Part shown: positions 37,173-63,456 of the stretch, piece by piece
How the letters are laid out: every line of letters starts with the position of its first letter
How positions within the stretch are numbered: position 1 is the stretch's first letter
DNA from: an uncultured Megasphaera sp.
GTDB lineage: Bacteria; Bacillota; Negativicutes; Veillonellales; Megasphaeraceae
Direction: 5' to 3'
Assembly: GCA_934202965.1 (NCBI GenBank)
Contig: CAKPYN010000006.1
Location: forward strand, 37,141-101,140
DNA length: 64,000 bases
The notes under the pieces: model-generated
The model's input: only the letters and a program-made list of their open reading frames with translations
Databases searched by the model: none
Told to the model about the DNA's origin: nothing
Program-made: the position numbers and the translations under genes

Positions 37173-37204
37173 GTATTCGCTGTACTCCTCACTCTCAACT
37201 ACAT

Positions 37205-37252
37205 ATAAAAAAAGATGTTTGCTCTCCACCTAGAGAACAAACATCTTTTTTT
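37205..37252. terminator. Bidirectional terminator between the convergent Cof and P-type ATPase genes
   Basis: AAAGATGTTTGCTCT(loop)AGAGAACAAACATCTTT flanked by A7 and T7 runs. Confidence 0.85.
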
Positions 37253-37260
37253 ATATTGCA

Positions 37261-39345
37261 TTATCGAATGACACGCCGCGACGGGCCAAGAATGCGAACA
37301 CTATTCAATACAACTGCTAAGGTAGCTGTATTATGGATGACAGCTGCCCATAACGGACTAATTCTGCCCAATGCTCCTAAAAGCATTGCTGCTGAGTTGA
37401 CAACAATCGTCGCTGTAAAGTTTTGGTTAATCGCTTTCATCGTACGACGGCCAATCTGCAAGGCATCACAAAGCTTGCTAGGATCTTCGGATCGAATTGT
37501 AATGGCTGCTGATTCGGCAGCAATATCTGTTTTATTACCACCTAGGCTGACACCAATATCAGCAAATGCTAATGCTGGGGCATCATTAATACCATCGCCA
37601 ACCATCATAACATTGCCGCGTTTTTGAAGTTTCATGACATAATTTGCCTTATCTTCCGGCAAAATTTCTGCATGATAGGAATCAATATCCATGTCATGGG
37701 CTACTTCTGCAGCCATGTCTTTCGAGTCGCCCGTAAGCATAACTACTTCATCAATGCCGATACGTCGCATTTGATTCAGTGTTTTTTTCATAGCCGGGCG
37801 AACTGGATCTTCAATCGTCAAGCAGCCGAGATATTGTTTGTCTCTGGCAACATAGAGCAAGTTTCTACCCCATGATTTATCGCTGACTTCCGGAACACCT
37901 TGTACGTTTTCTTCCTGCATGAACCGCCGGCTGCCGACAAGAACATCGCCGCCCTGATAGGTTTCAAAATCAGGAACCATCGCCTTCATACCGCGTGCTA
38001 CTATCGTTTCTGATGTTTCATGCGGCGGCGTTTCCCATTCCTGTCCTTTTACATATTTTTGAATAGCTACGGCTAATGGGTGAACAGAGTGCATTTCTGC
38101 TGAAGCGGCCAACAAAATCATTTCTTTTTCTTCCACACCTTTGGCTGTTTCAATATGCGCAATCTGCGGTACACCCATGGTAATTGTACCCGTTTTATCC
38201 AGCACAACCGTATCAATATCTGCTAAATTTTCGATATAGTTGCCGCCTTTAATCAGAATCCCCTTACGAGCAGCAACGCCAATAGCAGCTGAAATTGCTG
38301 TTGCCGTAGACAATTTTAAGCCGCAAGAGAAATCAATAAACAACAGATTCAAAACACGCTGCCAATCTTTTGTAGCACCGTATACAATGGCTGCACCAAT
38401 AAAGGAAATCGGAACCAGCATATTGGCCATCTTATCAGCAAAATTTTGAACAGGTGCACGCCGTGTTTGGGCTTCTTCTACTAGATGAATGATTTGCGCC
38501 AAGGATGTATCTGCACCGACTTTTTCTACTTCAATTACTAAATCGCCGGCTTCAATAATACTGCCTGCATACACAGAGGAACCAGCTTGTTTGATAGCCG
38601 GATTGGATTCACCAGTAATAGAAGCCTGATTGACTGCTGCATTGCCGGATAAGACACGGCCATCTACACAAATTTTTTCACCCAGATGAACGGCAATATG
38701 ATCGCCGACTTTCAGTGATTCAACCGGTACTTTCCGTTCTCGGCCATTTTCAATAATCCAAACATCGCGCTGATCTAATTTGAGCAAGCCGGAAATTTGC
38801 CGGCGCGCACGTTCAGCAGCATATTCAGTCAACATTTCTGCCCCATTAGACAATGCCAGCAAGGTCAGACTGGATTCCGGTTTACCAGCCAATACCGAAG
38901 CCGCTACAGCCGTTGCCGTCAAGGTATCCGCATTTGCCTGATGATCTTTTAAGACTCCCATGACACCGCTGTAAATAAATCGACGAGCAATATACAACGT
39001 AAACAGACGACGGAATAATAAAATACCTGCATAAAATTTCGGATTGGTCTTACGCAGAATGTTCATCGCAATAAAACCGCCTACGGAAATAATCGCTTCG
39101 CGACGATATGCAGCTACGTCCCATTCCTTTTTTTCTTCTTTTTTCTTACCATATTTGTTTTCAAAAGAACGGACAAACATACGAACCGATCGTAAGTCCA
39201 CACGTCCCGTATAATAAAATGTTAATTTTCTTTCATTGGTAGATGCCGCCACAATTCCCGGAATCTGTCGTAATTTGACACTTAGAATAGGACGCATTCT
39301 CACTGGAAGAAGACTATGAAGCTCCATTGTACAACATGTATACAT
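37261..39345 (-). CDS. P1B-type (heavy-metal) P-type ATPase, atypical; FezB-like candidate
   Basis: TGES (SITGESNP), DKTGTIT, HP motif (HSVHPLA), MLTGD and GDGINDAPAL are all present. The TM4 position reads FSCGLKLSTATA (S-C-G instead of CPC). There is no CxxC metal-binding domain; the N-terminus is a Cys-less HMA-like segment. Confidence 0.85.
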   Translation of the reverse strand: MYTCCTMELHSLLPVRMRPILSVKLRQIPGIVAASTNERKLTFYYTGRVDLRSVRMFVRSFENKYGKKKEEKKEWDVAAYRREAIISVGGFIAMNILRKTNPKFYAGILLFRRLFTLYIARRFIYSGVMGVLKDHQANADTLTATAVAASVLAGKPESSLTLLALSNGAEMLTEYAAERARRQISGLLKLDQRDVWIIENGRERKVPVESLKVGDHIAVHLGEKICVDGRVLSGNAAVNQASITGESNPAIKQAGSSVYAGSIIEAGDLVIEVEKVGADTSLAQIIHLVEEAQTRRAPVQNFADKMANMLVPISFIGAAIVYGATKDWQRVLNLLFIDFSCGLKLSTATAISAAIGVAARKGILIKGGNYIENLADIDTVVLDKTGTITMGVPQIAHIETAKGVEEKEMILLAASAEMHSVHPLAVAIQKYVKGQEWETPPHETSETIVARGMKAMVPDFETYQGGDVLVGSRRFMQEENVQGVPEVSDKSWGRNLLYVARDKQYLGCLTIEDPVRPAMKKTLNQMRRIGIDEVVMLTGDSKDMAAEVAHDMDIDSYHAEILPEDKANYVMKLQKRGNVMMVGDGINDAPALAFADIGVSLGGNKTDIAAESAAITIRSEDPSKLCDALQIGRRTMKAINQNFTATIVVNSAAMLLGALGRISPLWAAVIHNTATLAVVLNSVRILGPSRRVIR

Positions 39346-39348
39346 TAC

Positions 39349-39996
39349 TTATCGTCCACCTCTCATTAGAGCCGCAGCCCACCATAACATCTGCGGGCCT
39401 GACGGCCGTTGATTGAGCATAATCATTTTGCGCATGCCCCGAATGATAAAGATAAAGGATACAAGCGAGCGCAAATCCAATACATTGGCTGTTTTTTTAG
39501 AAATAATGCCATTAAACAAATCCAATGTTTCATACAGTGCATCCCGATACGCAGCTCGATTACTATTTTGCTGTATCATCAGTGCTTCACGCTGTTGATT
39601 TTCATTTTCTGTAAATACACGGCTGCGTAAGAAAATTTCTAATTGATCCAATATTCCTTCATCGTTGGCGCATAGAAGAATACTTCCTGTTACAGAACTG
39701 ATTTGTACAGTTTGTATCGCTTTGAGGCTTGCAATTTTGTTTTGCAGCATATCTGCCAATGCCTGATTTCCTACCAAAGCAGCCACCCGATAGCGACGAC
39801 GTCCTTTTATGGCAGACACGCAAGTAAATGCTGGTATAGTTGCTTCACCCATCGAAAGCGGTGCTGTTATCTGGGGCTGTACCTTAGGTACGTTAGCACC
39901 CTGATACGCACCAACTGGTGTATCATTCTTACAAAACATGCCATGAATCGCCTTACCAATCGACGCTCCCAACATGAATCCAGAAGCATAAGACAT
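39349..39996 (-). CDS. Hypothetical protein with an N-terminal GxxxG segment and a Cys-less HMA-like domain
   Basis: N-terminus SGFMLGASIGKAIHG. The central segment IKGRRRYRVAALVGNQALADMLQNKIASLKAIQTVQISSVTGSILL resembles the upstream 114-aa protein. The ATG at 39996 is 6 nt after a GGAGAGG SD; the track start is 40002. Confidence 0.7.
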   Translation of the reverse strand: MSYASGFMLGASIGKAIHGMFCKNDTPVGAYQGANVPKVQPQITAPLSMGEATIPAFTCVSAIKGRRRYRVAALVGNQALADMLQNKIASLKAIQTVQISSVTGSILLCANDEGILDQLEIFLRSRVFTENENQQREALMIQQNSNRAAYRDALYETLDLFNGIISKKTANVLDLRSLVSFIFIIRGMRKMIMLNQRPSGPQMLWWAAALMRGGR

Positions 39997-39998
39997 GG

Positions 39999-40343
39999 TC
40001 ATCCTCTCCTTTCTACGTGGCTCATAATATATTGTTCCACTCTTGCTAATTCCGTATTCATCCGCAAAACATCTGGACGATACACAATCAGAATCGATCC
40101 CGTAACGACATTTATATCGACTTTGTCAATTTCTTTATAACTTGCAATATATGCATATACTTTACGACCCAATTCTGCATTACCAATCAATTTTCGGCTG
40201 TGAAGACGAATCCGTCCGGGTATATAAGAAGAAATTTGTACAGCACGAATAATAATATCCCACTTTGATACAGGTAGAAACACGATGTTGCGCAACCCTT
40301 TCTTTTGCCAGATTGTAAAAAAGACCATTACCATCAGTGGCAA
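39999..40343 (-). CDS. Small protein with a Cys-less HMA-like domain
   Basis: IPGRIRLHSRKLIGNAELGRKVYAYIASYKEIDKVDINVVTGSILIVY after a hydrophobic N-terminus. The start is uncertain (TTG 40343 or ATG 40334, neither with a strong SD). Its stop overlaps the SD of the next gene. Confidence 0.65.
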   Translation of the reverse strand: MPLMVMVFFTIWQKKGLRNIVFLPVSKWDIIIRAVQISSYIPGRIRLHSRKLIGNAELGRKVYAYIASYKEIDKVDINVVTGSILIVYRPDVLRMNTELARVEQYIMSHVERRG

Positions 40344-40369
40344 CAGTCTTTTGTTTGTGTTATGTACAA

Positions 40370-40582
40370 TTATTTTGCTGCTTCCTGGGCTGCAATTAAA
40401 TCTTCTAATTCTTCTTTTTGACGCTGTAATTCAGCTAAAGGCACGTTAGCAGATACTGCACCTGCAGCTGGCTGCTGCAATGCGAGAAGCTGTTGTTCTC
40501 TTTCGCTAAGCAGTTTGTAACCAAATACACCTGCAACAACACCAATTCCTAAACCAATCCAAAAATCACTATTTTGAAACAT
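40370..40582 (-). CDS. Small membrane-anchored protein with a glycine zipper and coiled coil (YtxH-like)
   Basis: 70 aa: FWIGLGIGVVAGVFGYKLL followed by a helical E/Q/A-rich tail. A strong AGGAGAGG SD is upstream. It is the first gene of the ATPase cluster. Confidence 0.7.
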   Translation of the reverse strand: MFQNSDFWIGLGIGVVAGVFGYKLLSEREQQLLALQQPAAGAVSANVPLAELQRQKEELEDLIAAQEAAK

Positions 40583-40633
40583 AAGGCACCTCTCCTTTTT
40601 TCAAATCTATATTACTACTTATTTACGTCCCTT

Positions 40634-40662
40634 ATTATACAGGAAAAAAAAATAATTGTAAA
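40634..40662 (-). promoter_or_regulatory. Putative sigma-A promoter of the ATPase cluster
   Basis: Minus strand TTTACA, 17 nt, TATAAT, about 50 nt upstream of the first gene. Confidence 0.5.
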
Positions 40663-40684: not shown

Positions 40685-40870
40685 TATTTATTTTCATATA
40701 CTATCGCATTTTTTCAAAACAGTGTAAAAAAAAATGCGTTTCTCTTTTTTATCACATACAGACTTCATAATAAAAAAACATTATAACACATATTAATGTA
40801 AAAAATAAACGCATATATTCCAATAATATCTTTATTTTTACAAATATTTCCTAATATTTACAAATACAAC

Positions 40871-40909
40871 AAATTGCCCATACGGAATATATCTTCCCAT
40901 GGGCAATTT
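40871..40909 (-). terminator. Hairpin after the 750-aa gene (probable terminator)
   Basis: AAATTGCCCAT(17-nt loop)ATGGGCAATTT. The U tract is poor on the minus strand and better on the plus strand. Confidence 0.45.
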
Positions 40910-40963
40910 GCTTTTTATATAGTGCTTCTCATTATCTCTTTTTAATTATGAAAAGCATTTTCC

Positions 40964-43216
40964 TTATTCAAACCAGCGTGACAAATCAAATTCTTCGCCA
41001 ATTCGTTCTTTTATATATCCTTGCGCTAAATACAACCCTAACAGTGATAATGTAGAAACACGAAGCATTGTACTATCCCAAATATCGCCTAAGTCAGCTA
41101 AAACCGGTGATATATCTTCCATAATATCCAATGCTTCTTCACCCATGAAGCCTGCAGGCCGTTTCTTAGCCAGCCGCATAATCTGTTCCTGCATCATACG
41201 GTCTTGAATACCGGTCATGCGGAAAAATCGTGTCGTCATGCTTTCATCTACCATTGCTAATTTAATCAAAGGCGAATTGAAGGACTGCACAATAAATTCA
41301 GCCGGTATCCGTTTTCCGCGCAATGCCTTACGCAATTCTTCTTCCGTAAAACCACGATACCGGAACAATAATGGATACGAATCCGACAAAATTTCTGCAA
41401 AATGCGTTTCTTTACTTTCAAATGCCGTACAACGCAAATAGTCAAGCTGCTGATAATATGGGCGTTCTGTTGGGAATCCATCCAAAAATGGCGCAACATA
41501 TTTATCAATATATTCACTAAACGTTTCTTTATCAACATTATGTGAATTACGAGAGTATAAAAACAGCAGCAAAATAGCTAAAATTTTGTAATGTTCATTT
41601 GACAAATACGGCATAACTTTTAATGCATCAATAGCAACCAAATGCCGCGTCGATACCGGTGAACCCAGTACAATATCATCAAATGCCTGCAGAGCCAATG
41701 ATTCTACATGGCTTTCTGGATGGGCCGCATATGCTTTTTGCAAATTCAGCAATGCTTCCTGTGCCAACAACGTGGACATAGCTTGTTGCCGCTGTTCATC
41801 ATCGGTACAGCCAATCCGATCAAACGCAGCTGTTGTAATATGTTCCGCCTGTTGTTTCAAAGCCGGCGTTACCATGCCAAACTGATTGAGGAAATGTTCA
41901 GCGCACTGCTGAATCAGCGGGGATACGGTTTGTTTCTTTTGTGTTTCTTCTTCGTTCCAAATAGATTGCCGTTTACCAGCGCCAGTCAATGGCGTTGCCT
42001 TCGTAGCCGACAAATCATTGCCCCATGGACTCTTTTGCGTAAGCGGAATTTCCATGTCTGCTTGTTGTGTCGATGCCTGTGGGCGTCTTGTTGTTTGGCG
42101 CGAATGAATAGGCGGCATAACTGCCGTTTCTTCTAAATCAGCTTGCTCTTTAGGAATAGCTGTATCGATATGGATAGGTTCCATACGCTGTGTTTGTTCT
42201 AATGAAGCTGCTACAGCTTCCATCTGTGCTTGTTTTTGTGCCGCTGCTTCACGTTCTTTCTGTCGCAGCATAGCCGGATCAATAATTTGCGTTTCATCAT
42301 TTAAACCGTCATTCGATGTATGCGAAACCGTTTCAGTATGTTCCGGCAGTGGTTGTCCTGCCGCCTTGGCATTTTCTGCCATTACTTCTTGTAAAATGTG
42401 TTTGCGGTGCGGGACTTTTTTCTGAGATTCATCAACAGCTGTCTGTTCATGCGCTGACGATGATACCTGCGGCTGCTTCAATCCTGCATTATCATCATGG
42501 CGCGAAGCCAAATCAGCTGCTACGACAGCTGCCATATCTGCCAGCTGCGGTTCTTCAGACTCTGTCTTGGCTACTTCATCAGCCCACTGTGCCTGCTGCT
42601 GTCGTTGCACTTCTTCTTGCTGCCGTCTTGCCTGTTCTTGACGGCTGCGAGTACGCAGCGCCTGATCTTCAGCAATATGACGATCTTCTGCCGCTTTTTC
42701 TTCAGCAGCCCGCCGTTCTCGTTCTTTTTTAGCTTCTTCGGATTTTGCTTTATACGCAGCAGCTTCTTCTTTATCTACTTTGTCCATTGCCGCTAAAATT
42801 TCATCACGCGACAATACACGCGTAATATCTAAATTTTCCTGTTCATCCGACGGTGTCTGCCGGTTAGCTGCCTGATATACAATACGTCCATTACGCCGAA
42901 CAGCTTCCCCTTTCGTAGTCACAAACGCCGTTTCTTCCGGATGTTCCTGCCGTTCCCTCACTGTAACCGTAGATATTTTGGGAAGGGGCGATGTATCTTC
43001 TTTGACATAGCGCTGCTGATGAGCTTTTCGCTGTACCGGTTTCTGATGATGTACAGGCATTCTTCGGCGCGGTGCCATACTTTCTTTTTTTTCATGCACC
43101 CGTTTTTCTTTTTTTATTTCTTCATCATGACTGCCGCCAGAATACAGCACATAACATACCACAAAAAAGACAATCACAATACCCGCTATGATAGCATATG
43201 GCAAAAAGTTGGTCAT
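40964..43216 (-). CDS. Membrane-anchored protein with a long charged low-complexity region and a conserved C-terminal domain (hypothetical)
   Basis: N-terminal TM (FLPYAIIAGIVIVFFVVCYVLY), then about 400 aa rich in E, Q, A, R and K, then a C-terminal region of about 330 aa with globular composition. No enzymatic motif recognised. Confidence 0.7.
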   Translation of the reverse strand: MTNFLPYAIIAGIVIVFFVVCYVLYSGGSHDEEIKKEKRVHEKKESMAPRRRMPVHHQKPVQRKAHQQRYVKEDTSPLPKISTVTVRERQEHPEETAFVTTKGEAVRRNGRIVYQAANRQTPSDEQENLDITRVLSRDEILAAMDKVDKEEAAAYKAKSEEAKKERERRAAEEKAAEDRHIAEDQALRTRSRQEQARRQQEEVQRQQQAQWADEVAKTESEEPQLADMAAVVAADLASRHDDNAGLKQPQVSSSAHEQTAVDESQKKVPHRKHILQEVMAENAKAAGQPLPEHTETVSHTSNDGLNDETQIIDPAMLRQKEREAAAQKQAQMEAVAASLEQTQRMEPIHIDTAIPKEQADLEETAVMPPIHSRQTTRRPQASTQQADMEIPLTQKSPWGNDLSATKATPLTGAGKRQSIWNEEETQKKQTVSPLIQQCAEHFLNQFGMVTPALKQQAEHITTAAFDRIGCTDDEQRQQAMSTLLAQEALLNLQKAYAAHPESHVESLALQAFDDIVLGSPVSTRHLVAIDALKVMPYLSNEHYKILAILLLFLYSRNSHNVDKETFSEYIDKYVAPFLDGFPTERPYYQQLDYLRCTAFESKETHFAEILSDSYPLLFRYRGFTEEELRKALRGKRIPAEFIVQSFNSPLIKLAMVDESMTTRFFRMTGIQDRMMQEQIMRLAKKRPAGFMGEEALDIMEDISPVLADLGDIWDSTMLRVSTLSLLGLYLAQGYIKERIGEEFDLSRWFE

Positions 43217-45351: not shown

Positions 45352-46395
45352 TTACTGAATTACAATTCGCAGTGCGCTTCCCAAGGCTTTATTCAAATTC
45401 GATTGCGTTGTTTTTGAAATAGAGCTTACGGTTAATACGACTTTTTCATTTAAATAATCAACATCTGTATTTACAGACGCATTGGTTGATTCTGTAGCGC
45501 GATAAATTTTTTCAGCCTGGGCCATTAAATTTTTATAGTCATCATAGCTGTATGTAGCAGATTGTACATAAACAGATTCTGCTGGAATATCTTTATCACC
45601 AGCAATGGCCTGTTCCAATTTTTCTTTGTTTTTCTGTGTCTTGACACCGATGCGCAGTTTATCCCCCTGCCAGTACATAATACCGTCTTTCGCAAATTCT
45701 TTTACAGAACCATACGTATCTTTTATATCTTTAAATACTTGCGATTCCAAAGAGCCCTGCACTGCCGCCGCTTCTTTGCTGGCAGCCGTATTACTGGTTA
45801 CAACCCGATACAATACATTGACAGCTTCACCGCGGGTAACATATTTTTTCGGATTAAATCGATTATACGCACCTGTCATGTACCCTGCTGCACCCAACGT
45901 ACTAACTGCATCTTTGGCCCATGGCGAAATGGTTGCACCATCGGCATAGGAAACAGGCTGGCCGCCTACATTGATGCCTTTATAACTCATATAATTATAT
46001 ACAATTACAGCAAATTCTTCCCGCGTAATTTTTTGTTGCGGCTTAAATGTATTATTGCTGTATCCTTTCATAATCTGTTTATCAACGAGAGAAGAAATGG
46101 CACGTTCTGACCAGCGGCCTTTCACATCAGAAAAACCTGCCGTTTTGACAACTGCATTGTCTCCTAACATGTTATTGATAATCGCTGCAATGCCTTCACG
46201 CGTAATATCGTCGTTAGGGCGGAACTGACCGTTCGTACCGCTGACATAATGATTATCATAAAAATATTCAATCGCCGTTTTGCCCCAATAGGTATCAATA
46301 TCTTTCATGGGACTTGCAGCAGAGGCTGCAAAAATGCCGGTACTCATACTGGCAGCTAATGCTGCTACTGCAAAAATTTTGGTATATTTTTTCAT
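45352..46395 (-). CDS. Secreted protein with three SLH domains plus a C-terminal domain of unknown function (paralog)
   Basis: Signal peptide MKKYTKIFAVAALAASMSTGIFAASA and three SLH repeats (FSDVKGRWSERAISSLVDKQIMKGYSNNTFKPQQKITREEFAVIVY). Confidence 0.85.
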   Translation of the reverse strand: MKKYTKIFAVAALAASMSTGIFAASAASPMKDIDTYWGKTAIEYFYDNHYVSGTNGQFRPNDDITREGIAAIINNMLGDNAVVKTAGFSDVKGRWSERAISSLVDKQIMKGYSNNTFKPQQKITREEFAVIVYNYMSYKGINVGGQPVSYADGATISPWAKDAVSTLGAAGYMTGAYNRFNPKKYVTRGEAVNVLYRVVTSNTAASKEAAAVQGSLESQVFKDIKDTYGSVKEFAKDGIMYWQGDKLRIGVKTQKNKEKLEQAIAGDKDIPAESVYVQSATYSYDDYKNLMAQAEKIYRATESTNASVNTDVDYLNEKVVLTVSSISKTTQSNLNKALGSALRIVIQ

Positions 46396-61092: not shown

Positions 61093-63456
61093 TTAGAAAT
61101 AGATCAGCGTAACACCGGCACCGCCGCCTTCGACATCATCCAGTTGGTAGGATTTGACAAAGGATTGTCTAGCCAAAAATTCATGAATTTGTCGCCGCAA
61201 GGCACCGCTTCCTTTGCCGTGAATGATTTTGACCGGACTGAAACCAGCAGCTAATGCCTGATCCAAAAAGCGTTCTACATCCGGCAGTGCTTCATTAAAT
61301 GTCTTGCCGATAATATTAAGTTCCGTCGCTACGCTGTTTGTTCGAATCGGTCGATACGATGATTTAGCGTTGGCTTTCTTCTCTTCCTGCTTTTCTTTTT
61401 TGATTTCGTCTAAATAGGGCGCACTGACATCTTGAAGTTTAACCCGTACAGTCATGCCGCGTACGGATACGGTCAGTTTTTTCCCATTGATTTCTGTAAC
61501 TGTTCCTAATCCTTCCAAGGAATTGACAAATACGCTTTGGCCGACTTTGAGTTGACTGGCATCAACAGGATCGCGATGGGGCTTTTCTGTATCCGGCAGG
61601 GAAATCTGTTGAATGGCACGCCGTGCTTTATCAATGGCCTTCGCTTTTTCTCTATCGGAGCTGTCCTTAGACTGCTGCTTGAGTTCACGGATAATTCGTT
61701 CTGCTTCCATACGAAGATTGCGTTTTAAATCCACCGCTTCCCGCCGGCTAGAATCAATAATATCCTGCCGCTTGGACGATACTTTTTCTTTTTCTTTACG
61801 CAGCTCATCTTCGGTATGACGAATCGATGTTAGGCGTTTTTCCAACTCTGCTTCTTCTTCATCCATTCGTTTTGACTGCGTATTGAGCTTGGTCAAAATA
61901 GCTTCCATATCAACATCTTGGGCTTTACTGCGCAGTTCTTTCGCCTTGGTCAAAATATCGGCAGGCATTCCCAGTCGTTCACTAATGCTAAAAGCATGGC
62001 TGCTGCCGGCGGCACCAATACGTAATTTATATGTCGGTTTCAGCGTATTTACGTCAAATTCGACATGACCATTTTCAATGCCCGACGTATTATAGGCGTA
62101 ATTTTTCAAATCGTTATAGTGCGTCGTAACCATGACATAAACGCCTTTTTGATACAGCGCGTCTAAAATGGCAATGGCAATGGCACTGCCTTCGGCCGGA
62201 TCGGTACCGGAACCTAATTCATCAGCCAAAATTAAATCGTCAGCCGTACAATGTTTTAAGATATAAATGAGCTGTTTCATATGACTGGAAAAGGTACTCA
62301 AGTTTTGAGAAATATCTTGTTCGTCCCCAATATCAGCAAAGACATCTCGAAAAACAGGCAGTTCCGATTCTTCACCAACCGGTAAAAACAAGCCCGATTG
62401 ATGCATTAATACCAATAATCCCAACGTTTTCATCGAAACGGTTTTACCGCCTGTATTGGAACCGGTAATCAGCAAAATCCGATAATCACCGCCAATCACA
62501 ATTGTATTGGGTACGACATGCTTGGCATCAATCAGCGGATGTCGTGCTTGTACGAGTTTTACGAGTCGTTTTTTAGATACTAATGGCCGGCAGGCTTTCA
62601 TTTGCAATGCCAGTTGTGCTTTGGCAAAAATAAATTCTAAATTGCCGACACAGACCGTACTCTCTGTCAATACGTCGTATTGTCCTTGCACAATGCTCGT
62701 CAGCCGTCGAAAAATCCGTTCAATTTCTTTGGTTTCACCAATACGGGCTGCCTGCAAATCATTATTGGCATTCACGATAGCCAAGGGTTCTACATATAAC
62801 GTAGAACCGCTGGCTGACGTATCATGCACAATACCGGGGAATGCATGGCGATATTCTTGCTTTATCGGTACCACATACCGATTGTTACGTACTGTGACCA
62901 ATACATCTTGGAAATATTTTTGGTAGTCTTTATTTTGCAGTACACTTTGAATGTATCGCTTGGTCTGTCGTTCTAATTCAACAATCCGGCTACGCAAACG
63001 CATCAATTCCGGCGATGCATTATCACGAATCTGATGATTATTGTCAAAGACTGTGGCCATTTTATGAATGAGCTGAGAAAAATCACCAATCGTCTGTGAT
63101 TTTTCTTCCAACTGTGGATACAGTTCTTTTTTATCTGCAAAATACGCACGAATTTCGCCGTATCGCTGCGCATTGTTCCAAATATCAATACATTCCTGCC
63201 CGTCTAGTGTTACTTCACGGCTTGCTTTTTCCAATGCCGGCCGAATATCGACAATCCCCCCAAAGGGCGTGGACGCTTCACATTGTAAACAATGTACGGC
63301 CTCTTCTGTATCATTGAGCCAAGAAGCAACAACGGTACTGTCACTGCTGGGACGCAGCCGCCGGGCAATTTCTTTCGAAAGGCGGGACGGTGCCAGCCGT
63401 ACCAGCATTTGCTGTACTTGATAAAATCCTAATATACGCAAACTTCGTTTATTCAT
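61093..63456 (-). CDS. mutS2: Endonuclease MutS2 (MutS domain V ATPase plus Smr)
   Basis: Walker A GSNTGGKT, DELGSGTD, a long coiled-coil linker and a C-terminal Smr domain (LNIIGKT...IIHGKGSGALR). Confidence 0.95.
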   Translation of the reverse strand: MNKRSLRILGFYQVQQMLVRLAPSRLSKEIARRLRPSSDSTVVASWLNDTEEAVHCLQCEASTPFGGIVDIRPALEKASREVTLDGQECIDIWNNAQRYGEIRAYFADKKELYPQLEEKSQTIGDFSQLIHKMATVFDNNHQIRDNASPELMRLRSRIVELERQTKRYIQSVLQNKDYQKYFQDVLVTVRNNRYVVPIKQEYRHAFPGIVHDTSASGSTLYVEPLAIVNANNDLQAARIGETKEIERIFRRLTSIVQGQYDVLTESTVCVGNLEFIFAKAQLALQMKACRPLVSKKRLVKLVQARHPLIDAKHVVPNTIVIGGDYRILLITGSNTGGKTVSMKTLGLLVLMHQSGLFLPVGEESELPVFRDVFADIGDEQDISQNLSTFSSHMKQLIYILKHCTADDLILADELGSGTDPAEGSAIAIAILDALYQKGVYVMVTTHYNDLKNYAYNTSGIENGHVEFDVNTLKPTYKLRIGAAGSSHAFSISERLGMPADILTKAKELRSKAQDVDMEAILTKLNTQSKRMDEEEAELEKRLTSIRHTEDELRKEKEKVSSKRQDIIDSSRREAVDLKRNLRMEAERIIRELKQQSKDSSDREKAKAIDKARRAIQQISLPDTEKPHRDPVDASQLKVGQSVFVNSLEGLGTVTEINGKKLTVSVRGMTVRVKLQDVSAPYLDEIKKEKQEEKKANAKSSYRPIRTNSVATELNIIGKTFNEALPDVERFLDQALAAGFSPVKIIHGKGSGALRRQIHEFLARQSFVKSYQLDDVEGGGAGVTLIYF

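Follow-up and report, generated by a model that had tools for sequence, protein, structure and literature searches.

Currently, ferrosomes are known from fez systems in Desulfovibrio magneticus, Shewanella putrefaciens, Rhodopseudomonas palustris, and Clostridioides difficile, which combine I) the P1B-6 ATPase FezB, II) GxxxG proteins (FezA/E/G), and III) arginine-rich HMA proteins (FezC/D). According to Grant & Komeili, FezB is defined by D[Y/F]SCA in the fourth transmembrane helix (TM4), HNxxT in TM6, and an arginine-rich N-terminus. Related ingredients occur in CtpC-PacL1 of Mycobacterium tuberculosis and relatives, which forms plasma-membrane efflux platforms ('effluxosomes'). A 2026 review asks whether further ferrosome-like structures exist. 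In this study, a four-gene operon was analysed in a 64-kb stretch of DNA from an uncultured Megasphaera sp. (contig CAKPYN010000006.1), hereafter the window. The operon encodes, in this order, a glycine-zipper protein (G70), two HMA-like proteins (H114 and H217), and a P1B-type ATPase. It is put forward as a good, though unproven, candidate for a variant of the bacterial iron-storage organelle that has so far gone unrecognised.

The ATPase matches the Pfam families E1-E2_ATPase and Hydrolase and scores 535 bits against NCBIfam ATPase-IB_hvy. An earlier note on this DNA, made from the letters alone, had claimed all catalytic motifs, S-C-G at the TM4 position, and no canonical metal-binding domain, and each of these was recovered: TGES (residue 244), DKTGT (383), MLTGD, and GDGINDAP (583) are present, TM4 reads DFSCGLK (aa 338-344, nt 38314-38334), and neither a CxxC nor a Pfam HMA domain (PF00403) was found by motif and Pfam scans. 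TM6 reads HNTAT (aa 671-675, nt 37321-37335), in agreement with the FezB signature HNxxT, and DFSCGLK recurs in 9/9 Negativicutes orthologues of the ATPase alignment. The N-terminal domain is arginine-rich and degenerate, with a single RxR in HSLLPVRMR (aa 10-18), which resembles HSLPGRTRL of the Bacillus relatives. It has no Pfam HMA_2 match, whereas the N-termini of FezB, Bacillus, Fusobacterium, and CtpC-like ATPases match HMA_2, and the arginine-rich motif has likewise decayed in the Selenomonas orthologues.

A full HMMER search of 1.84 billion representative proteins placed about 20 sequences at the top by score, all of them D[YF]xCG (the xCG clade), followed by CtpC-like (ACPCA[AV]G/HNxST) and FezB (SCA) proteins. 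The nearest relatives, at 83-96% identity, are from Megasphaera and Caecibacter, and together with the operon loci they confirm the earlier note's guess of a Negativicute-like genome, which is that of a Megasphaera. In a neighbour-joining tree of 121 sequences (540 columns, 100 bootstraps, rooted on CopA/CadA-like pumps), the xCG clade was monophyletic in 70/100 bootstraps and the SCA (FezB) clade in 79/100, and the sister of the xCG clade was SCA (FezB) plus a Cys-less DxG[TS]G offshoot (78/100). With D[Y/F]xC in TM4 and HNxxT in TM6, the ATPase falls within a P1B-6-like superclade. It is set apart from the CopA/CadA-like outgroups, and a grouping with Cu, Zn, or Co exporters, which the earlier note had named as speaking against its proposal, did not appear in the tree.

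This placement agrees with published work. Supplementary Table 1 of Grant & Komeili, in which colours track motif and phylogenetic placement, lists a Megasphaera cerevisiae protein (DFSCGLK/HNTAT) in a differently coloured, non-FezB, FezB-related clade, so that the xCG clade, including this gene, is already published. Its other members come from Selenomonas, Megamonas, Centipeda, Pelosinus, Sporomusa, Clostridium, Bacillus, Fusobacteria, Spirochaetes, and Succinivibrionaceae. Megasphaera, Selenomonas, Megamonas, Centipeda, Anaerovibrio, and Fusobacterium stand only in non-FezB rows and are absent from those authors' tables of FezB-bearing organisms; the authors suggest that FezB-related ATPases might act similarly. 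Because xCG and SCA are sister clades in the tree and differ in the TM4 motif, the ATPase is classified here as FezB-related yet not FezB in the strict sense. The membership in FezB/P1B-6 that had been claimed for it thus fails in the strict sense: TM4 is DFSCG and not D[Y/F]SCA, the published clade is a non-FezB one, and the tree makes it a sister only.

Two other explanations start from the pump itself. In the first, it would be an ordinary Cd/Zn/Co/Cu resistance ATPase with two metallochaperones. The protein does score 406 bits against NCBIfam ATPase-IB2_Cd, for which the subfamily cut-off is 313.5, and its closest solved structures are Cd, Cu, and Zn pumps; however, TM4 contains none of CPC, SPC, and CPH, a CxxC domain and PF00403 are lacking, the tree separates it from the CopA/CadA-like outgroups, and the would-be chaperones have no metal-binding Cys pairs and belong to the basic-patch CoBaHMA family. 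Because of its TM4 motif, the missing CxxC, and the tree, a Cd/Zn/Co resistance pump accompanied by metallochaperones was rejected, and this explanation as a whole is held to be highly improbable. In the second, which is the main rival because a CtpC/PacL-like platform uses similar ingredients, the ATPase would export excess Fe(II), Mn, Zn, or Co from a plasma-membrane efflux platform and there would be no organelle; G70 would be a PacL1-like membrane-anchored scaffold that stabilises or clusters the pump, and the CoBaHMA proteins would regulate it. The same Cd-family score is compatible with such a platform, as is the fact that CtpC-like representatives score as near to the window ATPase as FezB representatives do. 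CtpC is itself P1B-6-like (HNxS/T in TM6), has an HMA_2-type N-terminus (E 1.7e-5), and is described in the literature as forming efflux platforms. The tree argues in the other direction, as the clade stands beside FezB in 78/100 bootstraps versus beside the group containing CtpC-like pumps in 7/100.

Two further observations on the tree concern other sequences. On the FezB side, a subclade of P1B-like pumps (P0392, P0398, P0401, P0414, and P0434) has D[YF]G[TS]G[IV]R in TM4 and lacks the usual Cys and His ligands; in place of HNxxT, its TM6 reads SNG.. in 4/5 members and NDGAT in P0398. A match on a Pelobacter plasmid (H24) was rejected as a relative; it is an ordinary CxxC/CPC ATPase and was therefore used as a tree outgroup.

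The two HMA-like proteins connect the operon to true fez clusters. Both belong to Pfam HMA_2 (PF19991, cut-off 30 bits), H217 with E 4.8e-28 and 98.5 bits over model positions 8-153 of 154, and H114 with E 2.2e-12 and 47.6 bits. HMA_2 equals CoBaHMA, a domain of the HMA superfamily distinguished by one additional strand at the N-terminus and by a conserved basic patch. It was described from the neighbourhood of the calcyanin gene (ccyA) of carbonate-forming cyanobacteria, with some copies fused to a C-terminal helical hairpin and glycine-zipper proteins nearby. The related ferredoxin-like module without CxxC that had been predicted for both proteins is hence a PF19991 domain in each. The label 'Cys-less' suits H114, which has no Cys, and not H217, which has three; a PF00403 match or a CxxC (GMxCxxC loop) is absent from 4/4 operon proteins in the Pfam and motif scans.

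H114 is a short protein of the soluble type, and its arginine-rich strand is PGRIRLHSR (aa 42-50, nt 40194-40220). In H217, an N-terminal glycine zipper, GFMLGASIG (aa 8-16; G8-x3-G12-x3-G16), and a disordered linker precede the CoBaHMA domain, which spans aa 59-129 and contains GRRRYR; a long helix (134-170) comes next, and a helical hairpin (177-213; ...QRPSGPQMLWWAAALMRG) forms the C-terminal part. Invariant in the family alignment are G67, R68, R69, and R70, as well as Q204, M205, W207, W208, and A209 in the conserved C-terminus (...QRPSGPQMLWWA...). The AlphaFold model gives the CoBaHMA core (59-129) a predicted local distance difference test score (pLDDT) of >90 and the hairpin (177-213) about 75, with the glycine-zipper helix at low confidence; strands b0 (59-65) and b1 (68-73) include the extra N-terminal strand. 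A Foldseek search of the model against the PDB returned nothing at E < 0.01, HMA domains being the best, short and weak matches. In the fez clusters of Azospirillum, Arcobacter, and Cereibacter, the arginine-rich accessory proteins also match PF19991 (E 1.9e-9 to 5.7e-6), and profiles built from Negativicutes only find them, at 22-32 bits for H114 and up to 32.8 bits for H217. Because of these shared matches, CoBaHMA accessory proteins are, at the level of sequence families, common to the Megasphaera operon and true fez clusters. Separate arginine-rich HMA2 and GxxxG genes are the signature of fez clusters, whereas the CtpC-like ATPase locus of Rhodococcus has a DUF1490 partner only and no separate CoBaHMA genes, which speaks against an efflux platform.

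The third accessory protein, G70, has the glycine zipper claimed for it, as do small GxxxG proteins in nearly all fez clusters. It is a single-pass protein, and its N-terminal hydrophobic helix (aa 7-25) carries GLGIGVVAGVFG, with the spacing G10-x3-G14-x3-G18-x2-G21-Y22. A variable linker joins this helix to an acidic one that is conserved, ELQRQKEELEDLIA (aa 51-64); there are no Cys or His residues. The invariants of the family are DF..G...G...G..GY and EL..QKE.LED.IA. The database holds 1038 relatives, and among the 120 listed all are Negativicutes wherever the organism is named. No Pfam or NCBIfam family was found for G70, which founds its own unannotated family of glycine zipper plus acidic helix. 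The earlier note had expected the operon proteins to be annotated only as hypothetical or HMA-like, and public records indeed call them 'hypothetical' or 'HMA2 domain-containing'. Some G70 homologues (NCBI records P0187, P0242, P0272, and P0285, from Colibacter massiliensis and Selenomonas spp.) are even named '50S ribosomal protein L9' despite having no Pfam or NCBIfam match, which looks like a propagated annotation error.

How G70 relates to the small proteins of known systems was assessed with FezB loci of two kinds. Scanning metagenomes for DFSCALK gave about 110 gut Firmicutes genes for FezB; in 58 of these loci, FezB is preceded by the gene for a GxxxG protein, about 90 aa long, which matches Pfam DUF6110 and has a weak DUF1490 echo. 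Firmicutes FezB itself matches HMA_2 at its N-terminus, and separate HMA_2 genes were not present in these gut Firmicutes loci. On Azospirillum brasilense, Arcobacter, and Cereibacter plasmids, FezB lies in multi-gene fez clusters adjoining iron-uptake genes, and the gene immediately 5' of this proteobacterial FezB has weak YtxH and DUF5132 matches (L207 4618-4968, L209 4568-4972). The GxxxG feature of the small fez proteins is found in G70 as well as in the zipper of H217. Against 18 fez-cluster proteins, the G70 profile ranked four GxxxG proteins at the top, yet with 10-13 bits only. G70 therefore shares a layout (glycine-zipper helix plus charged helix) with FezA-like DUF6110 proteins, YtxH-like Fez proteins, and PacL/DUF1490, while homology is not demonstrable from the sequences. 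Of the notion that the small proteins are Fez-like, the part concerning H114 and H217 stood up to the profile check, as they belong to the same family as the arginine-rich fez HMA proteins; the part concerning G70 did not, as it is not a detectable DUF6110 or YtxH member. Identity with DUF1490/PacL was also rejected, given the lack of similarity (0.8 bits) and of a C-terminal metal-binding motif; the missing His/Cys tail counts against the PacL1-like scaffold of the efflux platform, even though a DUF1490/PacL gene does neighbour the CtpC-like gene in Rhodococcus.

Two observations on these loci extend beyond G70. In 11 of the gut metagenome FezB loci (within L084-L203), a gene for a Fur-family or DtxR/MntR-type regulator lies about 500 nt 5' of the DUF6110-FezB pair. 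DUF5132, CoBaHMA, and glycine-zipper proteins are also reported near the calcyanin gene of Microcystis; because YtxH/DUF5132, CoBaHMA, and glycine-zipper proteins adjoin both FezB and calcyanin genes, a common set of small membrane proteins may be used in ferrosome systems and in those for intracellular carbonate.

The gene set is conserved well beyond the window. One genome per prokaryotic species was scanned with two peptide patterns for the H217 family; 102 stretches matched, 86 were confirmed as relatives, and the 80 best of these make up the set of loci. Without exception they come from Negativicutes (Megasphaera, Anaeroglobus, Colibacter, Selenomonas, Centipeda, and Megamonas; a few records are evidently mislabelled bins). 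By tblastn, 72/80 loci keep the order G70-H114-H217-ATPase, which shows that the gene set is not a chance arrangement; of the remaining eight, seven are truncated by contig ends and one has no detectable H114. G70 (59-100% identity) and the ATPase (63-97%) are well conserved across these loci, and H114 (39-94%) and H217 (31-90%) diverge faster. A word-indexed protein search with H217 returned Megasphaera-like relatives only. In one Selenomonas sp. metagenome-assembled genome (L045, 7656-8528), the H217 orthologue is 290 aa long, and its N-terminal glycine zipper is separated from the CoBaHMA domain by a Gly- and Met-rich insert of about 100 aa (GMGGGMGMGGGMGRSAGMSG...). That locus has no detectable H114 gene of its own.

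Outside the Negativicutes, the nearest ATPases (about 40% identity) are found on plasmid pBM400 of Priestia megaterium and on a Bacillus thuringiensis plasmid. There the order is HMA2, HMA2, ATPase (DFICGIK), HMA2 with transmembrane helices, and a protein of 74 or 77 aa that is a clear G70 homologue (E 4e-24). Fusobacterium vincentii has the same five genes: the 165-aa protein matches HMA_2 over the full length of the model (E 3.8e-52), and the glycine-zipper protein, of 90 aa, scores 25 bits against the G70 profile. A tblastn search of the Fusobacterium HMA_2 protein against plasmids gave the self-match only, because these small proteins diverge too fast. By gene content, the kit is thus found to recur in three lineages, namely, Negativicutes, Bacillaceae plasmids, and Fusobacterium.

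This distribution bears on a further explanation, in which the pump would supply Fe or Mn to periplasmic or envelope metalloproteins, with the CoBaHMA proteins helping in targeting or regulation. In its favour, low-rate pumps that supply metal to secreted enzymes are established for other P1B subfamilies (FixI/CopA2 and CtpC proposals), both Negativicutes and Fusobacteria have a diderm envelope, and the Fur-type box described below would be compatible with control by metal demand. The same cluster is present in monoderm Priestia and Bacillus, however; the neighbourhood analysis of orthologous loci found no candidate client enzyme conserved beside the operon, and three membrane-associated glycine-zipper/hairpin proteins would be left unexplained. 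Metal delivery is accordingly judged improbable.

The link to iron comes from the promoter and from neighbouring genes in related genomes. A Fur-type box lies 8 nt 5' of the -35 hexamer and is the best match to the Fur consensus TGATAATNATTATCA in the window; its left half corresponds to the Fur consensus and its right half to the PerR consensus. Among 76 orthologous promoters, 26% have such a box with <=3 mismatches, compared to about 3% of upstream control regions and about 4% of shuffled sequences, a figure that is not to be read as a probability since the loci are phylogenetically related. With <=2 mismatches the box occurs in 5/76 orthologous promoters, for which reason the classical consensus was rejected as a strictly conserved footprint, and enrichment is claimed rather than conservation. 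Just downstream of the -10 hexamer, many Megasphaera loci share (C/T)GTAAATNA(A/G/T)TATCA in an identical position, a possible second operator. The feo promoter of the Megasphaera elsdenii group has TAATGAAATGTATTATCA at the equivalent position. Two further Fur-box-like sites in the window (46244-46258 and 63032-63046, 2 mismatches each) lie inside long open reading frames and are probably due to chance.

FeoB is encoded near the operon in 16 of about 70 loci. A feo gene set (e.g., DUF2325-FeoA-FeoB by Pfam in L022) directly follows the operon on the same strand in 14 loci, among them those of M. elsdenii, M. massiliensis, M. hominis, and S. sputigena, and in two Megamonas loci FeoB lies 5' of it. 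The feo promoters in these genomes bear boxes similar to those of the operon: TTGACAAT(C/T)ATTCTCA covers the -35 of Selenomonas feo promoters and recurs on the operon -35 in other Negativicutes. Such conserved feo-promoter boxes are candidate Fur operators of the Negativicutes. The feo operons of the M. elsdenii group (L015-L031, in the intergenic region 3' of the ATPase gene) and those of L043 and L045 have their own promoters, with either a box 3' of the -10 hexamer that reads TAATGAAAT(G/A)TATTATCA or the -35 box just given. Because a Fur-type box lies on the promoter and feoAB adjoins the operon in related genomes, an iron link is plausible, and the operon is probably under a Fur-family repressor; the fez cluster of C. 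difficile is itself Fur-repressed. An efflux platform would sit less well with this context, in which a Fur-type box and iron-uptake genes stand where genes for metal-excess sensors might be sought; the neighbourhood analyses of orthologous loci revealed no sensor genes of the ArsR/SmtB, MerR, or CsoR type.

Ferrosome-like sequestration of Fe(II) is considered the most likely function of the operon, at somewhat less than an even chance. The balance tilts towards it because of the separate CoBaHMA and GxxxG genes, the placement as sister to FezB, and the feoAB/Fur context. In this model, the ATPase would pump Fe(II) or a close divalent metal from the cytosol into a membrane-bounded compartment, and the glycine-zipper and hairpin proteins would anchor in the compartment membrane, organise it, and possibly bend it. 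The CoBaHMA domains, which have no Cys ligands and a conserved basic patch, would for that reason bind anionic lipids or phosphate, or regulate the pump, rather than serve as metal chaperones. The outcome would be a ferrosome-like iron-phosphate store, made once Fur is relieved of iron, as in C. difficile.

Several points weigh against this proposal. Ferrosome formation, Fe(II) as the substrate, repression by a Fur-family protein, and an intracellular compartment are what we infer here, and for the xCG clade in general any metal or location given for the pump is a prediction. The ATPase has G in place of A in the FezB signature of TM4 and falls outside the FezB clade, in a tree obtained by a distance method on saturated sequences. 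G70 shows no significant relationship to any of its counterparts: hhalign of its family with the DUF6110-type proteins 5' of Firmicutes FezB gave a probability of 3-6% over 21-22 columns, there was neither a Pfam match nor significant similarity to the YtxH/DUF5132-like Fez proteins, and DUF1490 gave no match at E up to 10, with 0.8 bits for the G70 profile against the Rhodococcus DUF1490 protein. The CtpC pump has an arginine-rich N-terminus and a small membrane/coiled-coil partner (PacL/DUF1490), yet it is a plasma-membrane efflux platform. The box on the promoter is a Fur/PerR hybrid without strict conservation, and it lies 5' of the -35 and not over it. Fur control is also known for pumps that export Fe(II), e.g., FrvA of Listeria and PfeT of Bacillus subtilis, which are P1B-4 ATPases under Fur/PerR control, so that a Fur-type box alone does not imply storage. 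The Priestia and Bacillus xCG copies are plasmid-borne and adjoin insertion sequence elements, as is typical of resistance genes and in keeping with an efflux platform. Lastly, no iron genes adjoin the operon within the window according to the Pfam annotation of its neighbours. On all of this evidence, a plasma-membrane efflux platform is considered a possible but rather unlikely alternative.

The ferrosome-like reading has several implications. So far, ferrosomes have been tied to FezB with its SCA in TM4; the Megasphaera locus defines a conserved sister system whose helpers belong to Fez-like families or have Fez-like layouts. It is present in abundant gut, rumen, and oral anaerobes (Megasphaera, Selenomonas, Megamonas, and Fusobacterium) that are not FezB-bearing in the published survey. 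If the system does store iron, models of iron economy and nutritional immunity for these taxa need revision, and a function would be gained for the unannotated G70 family with its 1038 relatives and for part of the CoBaHMA family. No description was found in the literature of the xCG gene kit, the G70 family, the homology between CoBaHMA and Fez accessory proteins, or the feoAB/Fur context in Negativicutes, and nothing relevant was found on ferrosomes together with Megasphaera, Fusobacterium, Selenomonas, or Veillonella. Tractable test beds are P. megaterium QM B1551, with the cluster on pBM400, and M. elsdenii, with feoAB 3' of the operon. A broader and rather doubtful proposal is that xCG clusters, which range over Negativicutes, Fusobacteria, many Clostridia and Bacilli, Spirochaetes, and Succinivibrionaceae, specify a second class of ferrosome-like, lipid-bounded metal-phosphate organelles, whose metal preference might differ from that of FezB. 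The kit would then be a general toolkit for biomineral compartments, made up of CoBaHMA, a glycine-zipper or YtxH/DUF5132-like small protein, and a helical hairpin, and common to ferrosome clusters and the calcyanin neighbourhood.

The features of the operon are collected in the table. As the earlier note had stated, four packed minus-strand genes lie between their own promoter and a strong bidirectional terminator, and the catalytic and transmembrane motifs and glycine zippers that it listed are all present in the translated proteins. The four-gene cluster is a self-contained, conserved operon, with spacings of 26 nt between G70 and H114, a 4-nt overlap between H114 and H217, and 3 nt between H217 and the ATPase. 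The start of H114 is uncertain, being a TTG that is not preceded by a convincing ribosome-binding site; counted from the in-frame ATGs at 40334 and 40328, the protein would have 111 and 109 aa, respectively, hence the range of lengths in the table. H217 homologues start at codon 3 (MSY). The terminator hairpin has folding energies of -32.9 (minus strand) and -25.4 kcal/mol (plus strand), with z-scores of -9.3 and -10.2, respectively, and is flanked by U-runs on both strands; a simple terminator scan of the region did not detect it.

Table. Operon genes and control elements in the window
Feature	Position	Strand	Basis or remark
G70 open reading frame, 70 aa	40370..40582	minus	open reading frame list, hydropathy
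H114 open reading frame, 109-114 aa	39999..40343	minus	TTG start at 40343
H217 open reading frame, 217 aa (215 aa from MSY start)	39349..40002	minus	
xCG P1B-type ATPase, 694 aa	37261..39345	minus	open reading frame list, Pfam, NCBIfam, motifs
Sigma-70-type promoter TTTACA-17-TATAAT	40634..40662	minus	11/12 consensus matches, best of scanned region
Fur-family operator-like box TGATAATAATTATAA	40670..40684	minus	1 mismatch to TGATAATNATTATCA
Conserved element CGTAAATAAGTAGTA 3' of -10 hexamer	40613..40627	minus	recurrence in Megasphaera loci
Bidirectional intrinsic terminator	37200..37260 (approx.)	both	common to operon and convergent HAD-hydrolase gene

Neighbours of the operon in the window are genes for an EamA transporter, HAD hydrolases, an SLH-domain protein, and a 750-aa protein without a Pfam family. 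Features of the latter (40964-43216, minus strand) are a membrane helix at the N-terminus, a long region rich in Glu, Ala, Gln, and Lys, and a C-terminal domain that is conserved; in 13 Megasphaera loci, its gene is kept directly 5' of the operon. This gene seems to have its own terminator, judging from an inverted repeat with a T-rich run after it near 40870-40910, which was recognised by eye and not folded.

Among described systems, PfeT and FrvA have in common with the operon a P1B ATPase under a Fur-family operator (a putative one in Megasphaera) in a Firmicute; those pumps have SPC in TM4, belong to another clade, and have no CoBaHMA or glycine-zipper accessory genes. With the calcyanin neighbourhood, the operon shares CoBaHMA members with an arginine-rich strand (H114 and H217, the H217 model having the extra N-terminal strand), the architecture of CoBaHMA plus C-terminal helical hairpin, and glycine-zipper proteins nearby; by contrast, intracellular amorphous Ca carbonate is mineralised there, and the neighbourhood as described has no P1B ATPase. 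CtpC-PacL1 resembles it in having a P1B-6-like ATPase with an HMA_2-type N-terminus and HNxS/T in TM6, and a co-transcribed small protein with an N-terminal membrane helix and a charged helical tail. It differs in the CPC of TM4, in a DUF1490 partner with a His-rich metal-binding tail (G70 having neither His/Cys nor DUF1490 similarity), in the lack of separate CoBaHMA genes, and in its function, which is Zn (or Mn) efflux at the plasma membrane.

From fez clusters, the Megasphaera candidate differs in I) SCG versus SCA in TM4 and the position in a sister clade, II) a small protein of its own family instead of DUF6110 (Firmicutes FezA-like) or YtxH/DUF5132-like (proteobacterial) proteins, III) the lack of DUF4405, DUF2202, a FeoA-domain protein, and a second ATPase (FezH), and IV) a longer HMA_2 protein, H217, with an N-terminal glycine zipper and a C-terminal helical hairpin. 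In common with fez clusters are an ATPase of the same superclade with D[Y/F]xC in TM4, HNxxT in TM6, no CxxC, and a seemingly arginine-rich N-terminus (degenerate in Megasphaera); separate arginine-rich HMA proteins of the same family, PF19991; a small protein in which a glycine-zipper hydrophobic helix precedes a charged helix; and an anaerobic host, a Fur-type box, and, in some related genomes, iron-uptake genes as neighbours.

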